Made by a program: the position numbers and the translations under genes. This document shows, in pieces, positions 11,096-29,029 of a DNA stretch of 52,734 nucleotides (the stretch's first letter is position 1; every line of letters starts with the position of its first letter). Origin of the DNA: an uncultured archaeon (GTDB taxonomy: Archaea > Asgardarchaeota > Heimdallarchaeia > Heimdallarchaeales > Heimdallarchaeaceae); NCBI GenBank assembly GCA_964534625.1, contig CAZHRF010000018.1:1-52734 (forward strand), in the 5' to 3' direction. The notes below the pieces were generated by a model. It saw only the letters and a list, made by a program, of their open reading frames with translations, made no database searches and was not told the origin of the DNA.

Positions 11096-12568
11096 ATGTC
11101 TGAACAGATAATGATTAATGAGGAAAGTATTGAACCAAGCCATGAAAAAATTTCTAGAAAGAGCACAATCATGTATGGTTTTGGTTCATTCAGTGATCAG
11201 ATGTCATCTCAAATGTTCCAATTTCTTGTCTTTACTTATTATTACGCTATAGTACAGATCAGCGTAGAGTATTTAGTTATTGGTTTTATAATTTTTGCAT
11301 TATGGGATTCAATTAATGATCCTATTGTTGGAACTTTGACAGATAAGACAAATGTTGAAATGGGTAAGCGTAAATTTTGGACTATTGTCTCTTTGCTACC
11401 TTTTGCGTTGGTTAATGTGCTATTATTTACTCCCCCGTTTTTCTTTGGAAATACAAATGTTTGGCCTAATTTCATTTACATGATTCTAATCATCATTGCT
11501 TATGATACTGTATATACATTCTTTGGTGTTAGTCAGCTCAGTCTTTTTTCTGAGATGTTCATAACTGAGGAAGAGCGTGGAAGAGCAAATATGTGGAAAT
11601 GTGTTTTAACCATCTGTGGTGTAATTATAGGTTTTGTTGTACCAACTATTATTATTACAGAACTTGCTCCTGATAGCAATACAAGTCAAGCAGTTTTAGA
11701 ACTTATCCCCAAACAATATGTAATAAGTGGGCTTATTGTTGCTGTTGCTGTTATAATCTCAGGCTTAATTTTCTTTAAGTATGGTATCATCGAAGACCGT
11801 CACGATAAAGAATATCTTGAGAGTCAAGCTGATCCCGGATTAGTAGAAATGGTAAGTGATACGATCAGTAACGGTAAATTCGTTCTTTTTTGTACAGCCA
11901 ATATGATCAAATGGACCGTTTTTAAGATGTTGACTAGCATTATACCTTTATGGGCCATACACAATTTACAAATTACAGGTATTAGGGTTAGCCTCTTATT
12001 ATTAGCTGCATTCATTGCTTCTATGATCATGTTTCCTCTTATGGAAAAAATTGGTCAAAGATTTGGATGGCGTAATGCGTTCATTGGGACTCAGCTTTTC
12101 TGGTGTCTAGCTTTATTACCCTTCTGGTGGTATGATGGAAAACCCAATTTGGCAATGATTAATATGATCTTTGTAGGTGTGGGTTTATCGGGTGCTATCT
12201 TTTTTGTAGAACCCATTATTGCTAATCTTATCGATGAAGATGAACTCCGAACAGGAAAAGCAAAAGCTGGTTCATATTATGGTGTTAATGGGTTAATTAA
12301 CCGTTTAAGTACGATTCTGGTGTTTGTTATTATTGCTATCGTCTTAAGCGGCTACGGTTGGGAACAATATTTAATTGGAGCAGGAGAAGATCAACTTACA
12401 AACTTACGAGATGGATTAAGAGTCTTATTTGTTCCAGTAAGTATTGCAGGAAATCTTATAGTAGCACTATTACTATACATTTTTCCACTTCATGGGAAAA
12501 GATTAGAACAAGTCCAAGCTGAACTTGAAAAAGTTCGTTCAAGGAAAGTTTCAAAAACAAATCTATAA
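11096..12568 (+). CDS. MFS transporter, GPH family, paralog 2
   Basis: Same motifs; clear tandem paralog of 9420-10901. Confidence 0.92.
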   Translation: MSEQIMINEESIEPSHEKISRKSTIMYGFGSFSDQMSSQMFQFLVFTYYYAIVQISVEYLVIGFIIFALWDSINDPIVGTLTDKTNVEMGKRKFWTIVSLLPFALVNVLLFTPPFFFGNTNVWPNFIYMILIIIAYDTVYTFFGVSQLSLFSEMFITEEERGRANMWKCVLTICGVIIGFVVPTIIITELAPDSNTSQAVLELIPKQYVISGLIVAVAVIISGLIFFKYGIIEDRHDKEYLESQADPGLVEMVSDTISNGKFVLFCTANMIKWTVFKMLTSIIPLWAIHNLQITGIRVSLLLLAAFIASMIMFPLMEKIGQRFGWRNAFIGTQLFWCLALLPFWWYDGKPNLAMINMIFVGVGLSGAIFFVEPIIANLIDEDELRTGKAKAGSYYGVNGLINRLSTILVFVIIAIVLSGYGWEQYLIGAGEDQLTNLRDGLRVLFVPVSIAGNLIVALLLYIFPLHGKRLEQVQAELEKVRSRKVSKTNL

Positions 12569-12630
12569 AATAAAATAAAATCATCTTGAAATTCCATCTA
12601 AAAAACTTTTTTAATTTATTTCAATTTTTT

Positions 12631-12873
12631 CTATTCATACGCATCATCTGTTTCTTCGTATGTCAGTTTTAATCCACTTGGAGGAATATTATTTCCGCCA
12701 ATATATCCCACAAATGTTGCTCTTACATTAGCCTTCTCTTGACTCCGTTTCATATTAGGTTTTGTATGAACAAACTCAACTTGTTTGTTATATCTACTAT
12801 TAAATGTAGCAATTAACCATAATAGCAGTATGATTACAACCAACATCAAGATCATAGCTTGAAAGACTTGCAT
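12631..12873 (-). CDS. Small single-pass membrane protein
   Basis: N-terminal hydrophobic helix; fills intergenic space; divergent from the actin-like gene. Confidence 0.6.
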   Translation of the reverse strand: MQVFQAMILMLVVIILLLWLIATFNSRYNKQVEFVHTKPNMKRSQEKANVRATFVGYIGGNNIPPSGLKLTYEETDDAYE

Positions 12874-13006
12874 TTTTATCTGTGTACATATAGTCTTCCC
12901 TCCTTATAAACTAACCTTTACAACAATAATAAAACTTTGAAATTACATGTTTAAAGCAACTTTATCAAAGCTAGGTTTTTATATCCAAATATTTTCGAGT
13001 CAGATA

Positions 13007-14062
13007 ATGAGTTCTGATTCTATTTATGGCGTTGGCGTCGACTTGGGTACATCAACAATCAAAGTATCTTGCCAAGGTTTTTCATACAAAATACCGTCTA
13101 TTATAGGCGATAATAATCCTGGAGGGTGGGAAGGTTTAAATTCCAATAAAGAACTAATTGACAATTTATCTATTTATGATGATAATAATCGCTTAATATA
13201 TGTGGGGGAATTAGCTCGTCTTCAGTCCCCTATTAAAAAATCTCTTGCATCGGAAGGACGCATGAAATCAATACAAAATGTTATTCTTGCCCTCAAAGCT
13301 GCTTTAAGCATTATTCAGCAAAAGAAAGGATACGACACGTTTGTTATTGCCACCGGAGTTCCTGTAGCTAGCTCTAAAGATCAAAGTTTACGTATGATCC
13401 GCGGGATGAAAGGCAAACATTCTTTTAAAATTCGTAATGATTCTACAGGGGATGAAACTACTATTAACCTTCATTTTCCTAGGGCTATGGTTTTACCTGA
13501 ACCTTATGGAACTTACTGGCAAACCCTTAGTGTTTTAGGTGAAAGTAAAGCTGTCGATGCCATTATATGTGATATAGGTCACGGTAGTACCGACTTTTTA
13601 TGTATGTATAAAGGAGGAATTATGCGTGGAGCATCTGGATCTATAGAAGAAGCCACCGATAGTTTGACTAACGCACTTACTCGCGCTATTCAAGAAAAAA
13701 CAGGTAAGATCCTCCGACCCTTTGAGCTCATTAAAACTATAGAAGAAGGACGTAATCAAGTACTTGTCGGTGGAAAAGTTATGGATATTTCTTCTGCCAT
13801 TCATCAAGCTACTGTTGCAATTTCTGATGTTATTGTTGATGAAAGCCACCGTTTGCTTAACAATCTACCACCTGATGCTTGGATTGAGAAAGTCATTGTG
13901 TGTGGTGGAGGAGCACATATTTTTGGTGATTATTTAAAAAATGCTTTTGTTGCAGATGGTATAGTCAATTCAAAAGAAGAAATTTACGTGCCGCCAGATC
14001 CTGTAATGAGCAATGCCATTGGCTTTGAAACCATCGCCAATTCTCGTAAAGATAAAATTTAA
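13007..14062 (+). CDS. Actin-like ATPase, ParM/StbA/Ta0583 family
   Basis: Phosphate-1 VDLGTSTIK, ATGVP, LPEP, phosphate-2 CDIGHGSTD, adenosine CGGGA, SNAIG; likely start MSSDS at 13007 (ORF open from 12947). Confidence 0.9.
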   Translation: MSSDSIYGVGVDLGTSTIKVSCQGFSYKIPSIIGDNNPGGWEGLNSNKELIDNLSIYDDNNRLIYVGELARLQSPIKKSLASEGRMKSIQNVILALKAALSIIQQKKGYDTFVIATGVPVASSKDQSLRMIRGMKGKHSFKIRNDSTGDETTINLHFPRAMVLPEPYGTYWQTLSVLGESKAVDAIICDIGHGSTDFLCMYKGGIMRGASGSIEEATDSLTNALTRAIQEKTGKILRPFELIKTIEEGRNQVLVGGKVMDISSAIHQATVAISDVIVDESHRLLNNLPPDAWIEKVIVCGGGAHIFGDYLKNAFVADGIVNSKEEIYVPPDPVMSNAIGFETIANSRKDKI

Positions 14063-25120: not shown

Positions 25121-26260
25121 ATGTGGTCTTTTTTGTCTAGTAGAGCTAATTCAGTATGGGAGAATAAAGAAGTAAAAGAACGTTTACCAATTTATAAAAA
25201 AATTTTTACAGGAGAATGTTTGCCTAGATATCAACTCGCTAAGTTATTCCATACCCCTGTAAAGAAGGATAAACAGAGTAATTTGGAGATCCATAAAAAA
25301 TATCAAATGCAATTTAAGAAATGGGTTAAAGAAAACCAGCATTTATCTCATGAAGAAGTAGAAAAAAAGGCGTTGAAACTCCATTCACTTGAAGAATTGG
25401 AACAGAATAATTATCTTCATCTAAAATCAAAAATTTTCTATGATATTTTAACAGAATGTGAATTCTGTGGAAATAAATGCCATGTTGATAGAACAGCAGG
25501 TCAAGTAGGGAAATGTTTGATAGATGACCAAGCATATGTTTCAAGTTCTTTTATCCATGTGGGAGAAGAAAGCCCCATAATACCGTCAGGTACTATTTTC
25601 TTCTATGGTTGCACAATTCAGTGTGTTTTTTGTCAAAATTGGGAAATAAGTCAAGAACATAATATTCAATCGTATAAGGGGAGAGGGATAAATGCAGAGG
25701 GATTAGTTAGAATCTATGATGATCTAAGAAAACAGGGAGCGAGAAATATCAACTTTGTAGGGGGCGAGCCAACACCAAACTTACATTTAATAGTCGAATC
25801 TTTGCTTAAAACCGATATAGATATACCTATGCTATGGAATAGTAATATGTATCTATCGAAAACTAGCATGGATTTAATAGTAGACATATTTGATATTTGG
25901 CTTCCCGATATCAAATATGGAAATGATGATTGTGGAAAAAAGTATTCTTTAGTGCAGAGATACTGGCAGGTAATAAAGCGTAATGTGAAAATGATTGAAG
26001 AGAAAGGAAGTGGAGAATATATTATTCGTCATCTAGTCATGCCCACCCATGTGGATTGTTGTTCTTTACCAATATTAAATTGGATAGATGAAAACCTTGA
26101 AACACCGCTTGTAAATATTATGGGACAATATAGACCTCAATATAAAGTAAGAAAAGACTCTAAATATCAAAAAATCAATACCTTTCCTACAAGTAAAGAG
26201 ATGACTAAAGTACGGAATTATGCAGAAGAAAAAGGCATATACTGGAAAAGTGTATCATGA
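25121..26260 (+). CDS. pflX: PflX-like radical SAM protein
   Basis: HVGEE, PSGTIFF, CTIQCVFCQN, GGEPTP, RHLVMP, NIMGQYRP. Confidence 0.88.
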   Translation: MWSFLSSRANSVWENKEVKERLPIYKKIFTGECLPRYQLAKLFHTPVKKDKQSNLEIHKKYQMQFKKWVKENQHLSHEEVEKKALKLHSLEELEQNNYLHLKSKIFYDILTECEFCGNKCHVDRTAGQVGKCLIDDQAYVSSSFIHVGEESPIIPSGTIFFYGCTIQCVFCQNWEISQEHNIQSYKGRGINAEGLVRIYDDLRKQGARNINFVGGEPTPNLHLIVESLLKTDIDIPMLWNSNMYLSKTSMDLIVDIFDIWLPDIKYGNDDCGKKYSLVQRYWQVIKRNVKMIEEKGSGEYIIRHLVMPTHVDCCSLPILNWIDENLETPLVNIMGQYRPQYKVRKDSKYQKINTFPTSKEMTKVRNYAEEKGIYWKSVS

Positions 26261-26343
26261 TCCAAAGAGTATGTGGGTATATCTTACTTAAATAAATCTT
26301 CAAAAGTAATCCTTTTGTACTAACATTAAACTAACAATATACT

Positions 26344-26412
26344 GGGGAATGATCGGTAGGCATTTGATTGATGCTCCAAAGGAGCGATGAAAAAAGAAGC
26401 TTGGGTGACCCC
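26344..26412 (+). ncRNA. Probable box C/D methylation guide sRNA
   Basis: Terminal GGGG/CCCC stem; box C-like ATGATCG (26349-26355); 12-nt guide; D' TTGA (26368-26371); hairpin GCTCC-AAA-GGAGC; C'-like CGATGA; 14-nt guide; D-like GTGA (26405-26408); GC-rich island between convergent genes. Confidence 0.7.
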
Positions 26413-26423
26413 TTAAATGCTTT

Positions 26424-27623
26424 TCACAGGCTTTCAGAGAGTTCTTGCATTTGTTCTATAGTTATTTTGATATCTTCTTGAGTATTATATACGTGGGTAG
26501 ATAACTGAACTAATGATTCTTTATTCATTTCTTTTAGTTGGGTTTGAGCACACAATCCTCCGCTTCTCACTATTATTTTTCTTAAATCTTCCAATATTAT
26601 TGCCAAATCGTGAGTGTCAATTATTTCAACCTCTAAGGCCATAATCGGTCCATAACTACATCCTTCAATTTCTACGCTTTTAAAAGGTACAATACCCCTA
26701 ATCCCTTTTACTAGTAGTTCTCGTAAGTTTTTTTGATGAGCATGGATTTTTTCTAATCCTATTTCATTTAACACTTTGAAGCTATTAACCATCGAAACAA
26801 TCGCAGGAGTGTTTATGAAACCTGTTTCAAACGAATTGAATGTATTTGATAATGAATAAGTTTTTTCATCCATATGGTTGATTGAATTTGTACCTACTAT
26901 AAGTGGCTCTACATGCTTTCTCTTAAATGTCATAAATGCTGATCCCATAGGTCCTAATGTCCCTAATGGACCATTACATAGCACATAATCAGGTTGAACA
27001 TTGTCCAATGTGAGTGGTTCCAAGCCTATTGTTCTACTCACATCTAAAATGAGAGAAATGTTAAGATCTTCAAGTAATGTGGTTATTCGTTTCCAATCTC
27101 TTTTTATTCCTACTCCAACAGTTTGAGAGGATAATACAACAACTGATGTTTTGTCAGTCACTTTTTCCTTAATACTCTCTACTATATTTCTTTCATCTTC
27201 TTTGTGAAGAAAGTCTATGGTATAATTGAATAACTTCTTCCCTCTATATACAGGTCCTAACAGGGAATGGTCTTCCATCATACTAGTGAGTACATGATCT
27301 TTTTCATTCAGTTTATGAGAGAAAAGTATATTGCTCAACATCACTTCCATATCCGATGAAAATGATATATTGTCAGGAGAAATGTTAATTAGAGAACCTA
27401 ATTCTTTTCGTGCTTTTTCCAATTTAACATTGGCACAAATAGAGTATTCATGTGTTCCTCTATTTTTAACTCCTCCACATTTTTTATAATAGTCTGATAT
27501 AATATCGATCGACGAGAGGGGTAGACGTCCTATTGTTGCTGAATCTAAATAAATCAAATCATCAGGTAAAGCAAATGAAACCCCAAAATTTTCTCTATAT
27601 TCTGAACTCATCAAATATATCAT
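26424..27623 (-). CDS. SufS/CsdA-like class V aminotransferase fold protein, PLP lysine apparently missing
   Basis: IYLDSAT, RGTH, FETG, HDLA, VRSGGLCA, HVYNT. Confidence 0.82.
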   Translation of the reverse strand: MIYLMSSEYRENFGVSFALPDDLIYLDSATIGRLPLSSIDIISDYYKKCGGVKNRGTHEYSICANVKLEKARKELGSLINISPDNISFSSDMEVMLSNILFSHKLNEKDHVLTSMMEDHSLLGPVYRGKKLFNYTIDFLHKEDERNIVESIKEKVTDKTSVVVLSSQTVGVGIKRDWKRITTLLEDLNISLILDVSRTIGLEPLTLDNVQPDYVLCNGPLGTLGPMGSAFMTFKRKHVEPLIVGTNSINHMDEKTYSLSNTFNSFETGFINTPAIVSMVNSFKVLNEIGLEKIHAHQKNLRELLVKGIRGIVPFKSVEIEGCSYGPIMALEVEIIDTHDLAIILEDLRKIIVRSGGLCAQTQLKEMNKESLVQLSTHVYNTQEDIKITIEQMQELSESL

Positions 27624-28955: not shown

Positions 28956-29029
28956 GCACGCGTAGTCTAGTGGTAGGACTCGACCCTCCCACGGTCGAAA
29001 CCCGGATTCGAATTCCGGCGCGTGCACCA
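28956..29029 (+). tRNA. tRNA-Gly (CCC), intronless, CCA encoded
   Basis: Acceptor GCACGCG/CGCGTGC, D-arm GTCT..GGAC, anticodon arm CGACC-CTCCCAC-GGTCG, T-arm CCGGA-TTCGAAT-TCCGG, 3' ACCA. Confidence 0.97.

Follow-up and report, generated by a model that had tools for sequence, protein, structure and literature searches.

A stand-alone box C/D sRNA of a Heimdall-group archaeon with guides predicted to direct methylation of A1938 and G1920 in LSU rRNA

The stretch of DNA analyzed here (the window; 52,734 nucleotides) comes from a genome of 3.37 Mb with 32% G+C. Named records whose sequences are identical to homologs of the element described below belong to Ca. Heimdallarchaeota, which places the host in the Heimdall group of Asgard archaea, in agreement with the first-pass annotation. 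The element occupies positions 26344–26412 of the plus strand, within a 163-nt gap between two open reading frames, and overlaps neither. Upstream lies a radical SAM (activase-like) gene (25121–26260, +), a neighbor specific to the host. Downstream and convergent is a SufS/cysteine desulfurase-like gene (26424–27623, −; best E-value 1e-47, below NCBIfam cut-offs). A TATA-like element at 26313–26320 (+), 24–31 nt upstream of the 5′ stem, is a putative promoter, and T-rich or TATA elements are found at comparable distances upstream of many homologs. A sigma-70 promoter scan is not informative for archaea. The sole Rfam match in the window is a tRNA-Gly(CCC) at 28956–29029 (+).

The 69-nt element has the layout C, guide, D′, hairpin, C′, guide, D within a GGGG/CCCC stem, and every element proposed in the first-pass annotation was recovered at its place. 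The 5′ arm GGGG (26344–26347) pairs with the 3′ arm CCCC (26409–26412), and two-sided changes occur in three of these four pairs. A bulged A separates the 5′ arm from box C (AUGAUCG, 26349–26355), whose sixth position is a C that pairs with the G of box D (GUGA, 26405–26408). The D′ guide (12 nt, 26356–26367) is followed by box D′ (26368–26371), which is UUGA in the host and U-N-N-A in homologs. A hairpin at 26373–26385 connects D′ to C′; it has 5 bp in the host and 2–4 bp (GC/GC) in homologs. Box C′ (AUGAAAA, 26387–26393) has an A at position 6 that pairs with the U at position 1 of D′, a U-A pair seen in 24 of 25 distinct rows, and the D guide (11 nt, 26394–26404) extends from there to box D. 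All of these features are on the plus strand.

Archaeal box C/D sRNAs carry boxes C, D′, C′, and D in this order within 50–70 nt and have guides of 10–12 nt. The box order, length, and guide lengths of the host element all agree, and homolog cores measure 55–65 nt. The literal consensus (RUGAUGA and CUGA) is absent, the host boxes being AUGAUCG and GUGA. This consensus is typical of archaeal C/D sRNAs and not strictly defining, since published members (Mka sR107 and sR4) deviate likewise. The terminal K-turn is formed by the 4-bp stem, a 3-nt bulge, tandem G-A pairs, a U-U pair, and then a C-G pair that replaces G-C. L7Ae recognizes the stem, the 3-nt bulge with the box C uridine, and the tandem sheared G-A pairs of a K-turn (PMC7994747), and all three determinants are present and conserved. 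The host has the proteins of an archaeal C/D sRNA system: fibrillarin and Nop5 genes are adjacent on contig C27, and an L7Ae gene is also encoded. The folding z-score is modest (−1.85), as expected for a class of RNA that folds on protein. The first-pass annotation had called the element unannotated, and an Rfam scan of the locus gave no family at gathering score and only chance-level matches at E≤10, with the sR20, SNORD15, and snR13 families not among the latter. Among sequencing runs, none of RNA was listed as containing the stretch, and four DNA runs from one study, which may be the source of this DNA, contain it unchanged; neither result bears on expression. It is nearly certain that 26344–26412(+) is an intergenic archaeal box C/D sRNA.

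A homology model built from 15 homologs detects the sRNA at E<1e-11 in 28 of the 31 host-family genomes, and 13 of these 28 were outside the model-building set. The three family genomes with no strong match are 72%–79% complete. The order has three further families, and no convincing ortholog was found in those of their genomes that were searched. Among 27 family homologs, the hairpin and flanks are variable, whereas hardly any variation is seen in the boxes or in either guide core. Homology and covariation had been named in advance as checks of the proposal, and both came out in its favor. The nine proposed pairs are paired in 87% of structure cells, compared with 27%–46% in slid controls, and five of the nine show two-sided changes among relatives that are not independent. 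One homolog (L059, genome G030) carries a 12-nt internal tandem duplication within the sRNA, and a copy of the 5′ half (L014, G012:C15:380858-380900) lies 3 kb from a full copy.

The pair between position 6 of box C and position 1 of box D (C6:D1) is Watson–Crick in all 27 family homologs, as C-G in 25 and A-U in 2 (one row, G002, was corrected by eye for misalignment). The proposal of noncanonical C and D boxes with a compensated K-turn pair is thus borne out. Of eight orthologs from the outgroup family f6, which are mostly canonical with CUGA, six have a G-C pair here and the other two have a C-C mismatch. Pairing at C6:D1 is therefore favored and not strictly required. The flipped pair is less special than the first-pass annotation had suggested, since precedents exist: flipped G:C box pairs occur at C′/D′ of the published Methanopyrus sR107 and sR4 and also in Asgard family f12. 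Consensus-based scans will miss Heimdall sRNAs with a flipped C6:D1 pair.

At 25 of the 28 loci, a SufS-like homolog is found next to the sRNA. This linkage, together with the weak folding z-score, would suit an alternative in which no RNA gene is present and the SufS-like gene carries at its 3′ end a terminator or an antisense element whose complementarity to rRNA is due to chance. Against this, the sRNA persists in three family loci and in six checked outgroup loci that have no SufS-like gene in the fetched flanks, its conservation tracks the boxes and guides, and guide and rRNA co-vary (see below). We give an element of this kind very little credence and regard the SufS-like gene as a syntenic marker that is separate from the RNA. 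Two tandem SufS-like paralogs flank the sRNA, which lies antisense to them, in 19 of 28 loci (e.g., L035:221-1408 and 1591-2748), and the host locus has the downstream paralog only. The tandem arrangement in relatives bears on the idea that the protein encoded at 26424–27623 in the host has an active partner paralog.

The host has one LSU rRNA (C1:19540-22912), which is numbered here according to the E. coli row of the alignment by Dennis et al. The 16S rRNA (C1, about 12500–14050) shares this strand and lies about 5.5 kb away. Nucleotides 26357–26366 of the D′ guide form 10 Watson–Crick pairs with LSU 1935–1944, and the guide core is invariant in 27 of 27 homologs. At N+5, U26363 pairs with A1938 (G000:C1:21584, where G000 is the host genome). 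The positions of yeast C2278, A2280, A2281, and G2288 place the third A of CAAAUGCC at A2281, which is guided by snR13 (PMC4174444). The target named in the first-pass annotation, this third A, is therefore the one found. That proposal depended on the host 23S rRNA carrying the target sequence, and the host LSU rRNA does contain it.

When both guides were compared with the host 16S rRNA, LSU rRNA, and 46 tRNAs, a comparison the first-pass annotation had also recommended, the longest Watson–Crick match of each was the A1938 site for one and the G1920 site (below) for the other. Both guides form a Watson–Crick pair with host rRNA at N+5. Shuffled D′ guides reached 10 Watson–Crick pairs in 7 of 300 cases. 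Targets in tRNAs and 16S rRNA were rejected because they offer at most seven Watson–Crick pairs. A second host match to the D′ guide, near LSU 263–272, has a similar duplex energy (−14.7 versus −13.6 kcal/mol; 9 Watson–Crick plus 2 G-U pairs). This site is absent in eight relatives and so cannot explain the conservation of the guide, although it may serve as a side target in the host only. The D′ guide very probably directs 2′-O-methylation of A1938 (Am1938). An experimental map of Am1938 in archaea was not found in the literature searched, which is not proof of its absence.

The first-pass annotation had no target for the second guide, and this gap can now be filled. Nucleotides 26394–26403 pair with LSU 1917–1926, the 3′ strand of helix 69, through 8 Watson–Crick and 2 G-U pairs. 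At N+5, C26400 pairs with G1920 (G000:C1:21566), 18 nt from A1938. The duplex has only eight contiguous Watson–Crick pairs, and shuffled guides match this somewhere in rRNA or tRNA in 75 of 300 cases. Far fewer (32 of 5000) reach eight pairs when the search is confined to roughly 100 nt around the A1938 site. Under the rule that Lui et al. published for dual guides (PMC6009581), which sets a threshold of 32, the two guides score 38. The guide also fits the form of helix 69 that is found in the host family. This strand reads AGCUUCU in 16 of 16 family LSU sequences versus ACUCUCU in 14 other class members. The stem is remodeled accordingly, with C1910-G1920, A1908-U1922, and G1907-U1923 pairs (host G000:C1:21552-21570), and the 1910–1920 pair is flipped. 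The D guide core AGAAGC is present in 27 of 27 homologs. The corresponding spacer is unconserved in the eight f6 orthologs, so that the G1920 guide is specific to the host family among the orthologs seen. Methylation of G1920 (Gm1920) by the D guide is likely.

A different role for the D guide can be envisioned, in which A1938 alone is methylated and the pairing with helix 69 is an accessory or chaperone contact. The shortness of the D duplex and the lack of a D guide in the outgroup orthologs are in keeping with such a contact, as is a slip of register in 3 of 27 homologs, where the guide lies one base nearer box D, its C falls at +4, and the target would move to C1921. Precedents include the extra base-pairing of snR13 (PMC5389607) and the conserved, nonmethylating guides of Pyrobaculum sR33 (PMC6009581). 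In the other 24 homologs, however, the C forms a Watson–Crick pair at N+5, and the guide adjoins the better-conserved C/D K-turn. Furthermore, sRNAs of Sulfolobus and Methanococcus are predicted to target position 1920, and in bacteria TlyA 2′-O-methylates the same position (PMC5778110). A purely accessory contact is therefore improbable. The reading that we favor, with good though not overwhelming confidence, is a stand-alone double-guide box C/D sRNA that is predicted to methylate both A1938 and G1920.

The observed anatomy, conservation, complementarity, guide–target co-variation, and three protein genes can be joined to established C/D biology, which supplies transcription, RNP assembly, the N+5 register, and methylation, to give the most likely mechanism, that of a conventional L7Ae–Nop5–fibrillarin sRNP. 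L7Ae would bind the terminal K-turn, and Nop5 and fibrillarin would then assemble onto the sRNA. Each guide would pair with its own stretch of pre-LSU rRNA, an 8-nt linker (1927–1934) lying between the two stretches, and fibrillarin would 2′-O-methylate A1938 through the D′ guide and G1920 through the D guide. Because this dual pairing requires an open helix 69, the sRNP would act before or during the folding of H69–H71.

In most homologs the best-conserved guide, D′, adjoins a degenerate C′/D′ motif. The tandem G-A pairs of C′/D′ are intact in the host and are not intact in the other 26 of the 27, which keep one G-A plus the U-A pair. Such a motif might shift or double the D′ register (A1937 plus A1938, or U1939), or it might inactivate the D′ side in most relatives, leaving G1920 as the sole methylated position. 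The variable U-N-N-A form of D′ and a GUGA that lies one base earlier in five homologs would allow this. Likewise, the unusual D′ of yeast snR13 changes the register (A2280/A2281; PMC5389607), and box mutations lower the activity of archaeal sRNPs (PMC3001065). Yet the last A of D′ and its distance from the guide are invariant (27 of 27), the host G-A pairs are intact, and the same register occurs with canonical boxes in other Asgard lineages. An altered or inactive D′ side is thus even less probable than a purely accessory D guide, and A1938 remains the preferred D′ target. Lower conservation of C′/D′ has been described as a eukaryotic trait (PMC7994747). It is conceivable, albeit unlikely, that the D′ side methylates A1938 with no L7Ae bound, in sRNPs that are asymmetric in the eukaryotic manner and have a single Nop5. 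If true, archaeal sRNPs and eukaryotic snoRNPs would be linked by an intermediate form that can be tested.

Guide and rRNA change together. At position 1944 the host rRNA has A, in contrast to U in 15 relatives, and the host guide has U where 26 homologs have A. This compensation is a single event, and it is found in the most divergent genome. A further case is family f5, in which the rRNA has U1937 and the guides have the matching A (loci L226, L227, and L229 of f5, with L093 and L094); the rRNA and sRNA sequences come from different f5 genomes. In many Asgard families, an A1938 guide precedes a D-like box with the register unchanged. The pattern occurs in 73 of 400 genomes, far above the reversed control, although some of these matches are due to chance. 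The A1938 guide precedes D′ in families f1, f5, f6, and f12 and precedes D in f8, f11, f13, f17, f23, and f27, and the partner guides differ. In Asgard genome G284 (L256, G284:C84:13640-13800), guides for 1920 and 1938 occur together in swapped order. The best Rfam match of this sRNA is sR20 (E 4e-4, below gathering); a search for the rRNA of this genome did not find it. These results show that, from one Asgard lineage to another, guides take new partners and exchange box positions. No catalog of Asgard C/D sRNAs was found in the literature searched, which does not prove that there is none.

Both sites have been assigned guides in other archaea. Dennis et al. (2015) predicted A2204 (= A1938) as a target of Sac-sR125 and Iho-sR109 (PMC4644070, Additional files 1 and 3) and C2186 (= 1920) as a target of Sac-sR20 and Mma-sR104; these sRNAs were seen by RNA-seq, the targets are predictions, and LSU helices 68–71 are named a hotspot (PMC4644070). 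The Sulfolobus acidocaldarius Sac-sR125 and Ignicoccus hospitalis IHOsR109 RNAs have the same AGGCAUUUG guide in the same register, and their partner guide also aims at helix 69. In these RNAs the A1938 guide precedes box D, the partner before D′ is directed to G2172 (= 1906), and the terminal C6:D1 pair is G-C, whereas in the host the A1938 guide precedes D′, the partner is directed to 1920, and the pair is C-G. The host sRNA is thus of a different type and has only the A1938 guide in common with them. Sac-sR20 and Mma-sR104 (Rfam sR20, RF01140) likewise have a guide aimed at the 3′ strand of helix 69 whose N+5 position falls on 1920, but the base there is C rather than G, and the guide precedes D′ rather than D. 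Bacterial TlyA places a 2′-O-methyl at the same helix 69 position (Cm1920; PMC5778110); it is a protein-only enzyme that acts on C, in contrast to an RNA guide and G in the host.

Among eukaryotic RNAs, yeast snR13 (Am2280/Am2281), SNORD15 (RF00067), and plasmodium_snoR21 (RF01864) target the same stretch as the D′ guide. Like the host sRNA, snR13 uses its D′ side, with a nonconsensus D′ (PMC5389607; PMC4174444), although one snR13 guide methylates two adjacent A residues, unlike the single A1938 predicted here. The guide precedes box D in the plasmodium_snoR21 alignment and apparently also in SNORD15, judging from model positions 95–141/146. The likeness to snR13 and SNORD15 is limited to a target-dictated 9-mer with varying box position, which is no basis for inferring homology. 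We also considered the D′ position as a trait shared by Heimdall archaea and eukaryotes through snR13 and rejected it because the position of the guide differs between eukaryotes as well as between Asgard families. The special link between Asgard archaea and eukaryotes that the first-pass annotation had drawn from the A1938 guide does not hold, since crenarchaea (Sulfolobus sR125 and Ignicoccus sR109) have the same guide. Neither the target sites nor the flipped box pair is new, and both sites have published predicted guides in non-Asgard archaea. For the archaea that stand closest to eukaryotes, the map of rRNA modification gains a well-supported sRNA family that is absent from Rfam, along with two concrete predictions, Am1938 and Gm1920, at the subunit interface.

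Other C/D candidates were also observed in the host genome. A strict intergenic scan yielded eight candidates, whereas a loose genome-wide scan gave mostly noise. Contigs C48 and C98 contain possible further copies of the guide, which were rejected because they have no box layout. Intergenic candidates at C32:5385(+), C114:120(−), C5:94154(+), and C15:34526(−) have 9–11 Watson–Crick matches to rRNA, and their C6:D1 pairs are G-C, G-C, A-U, and U-A, respectively.
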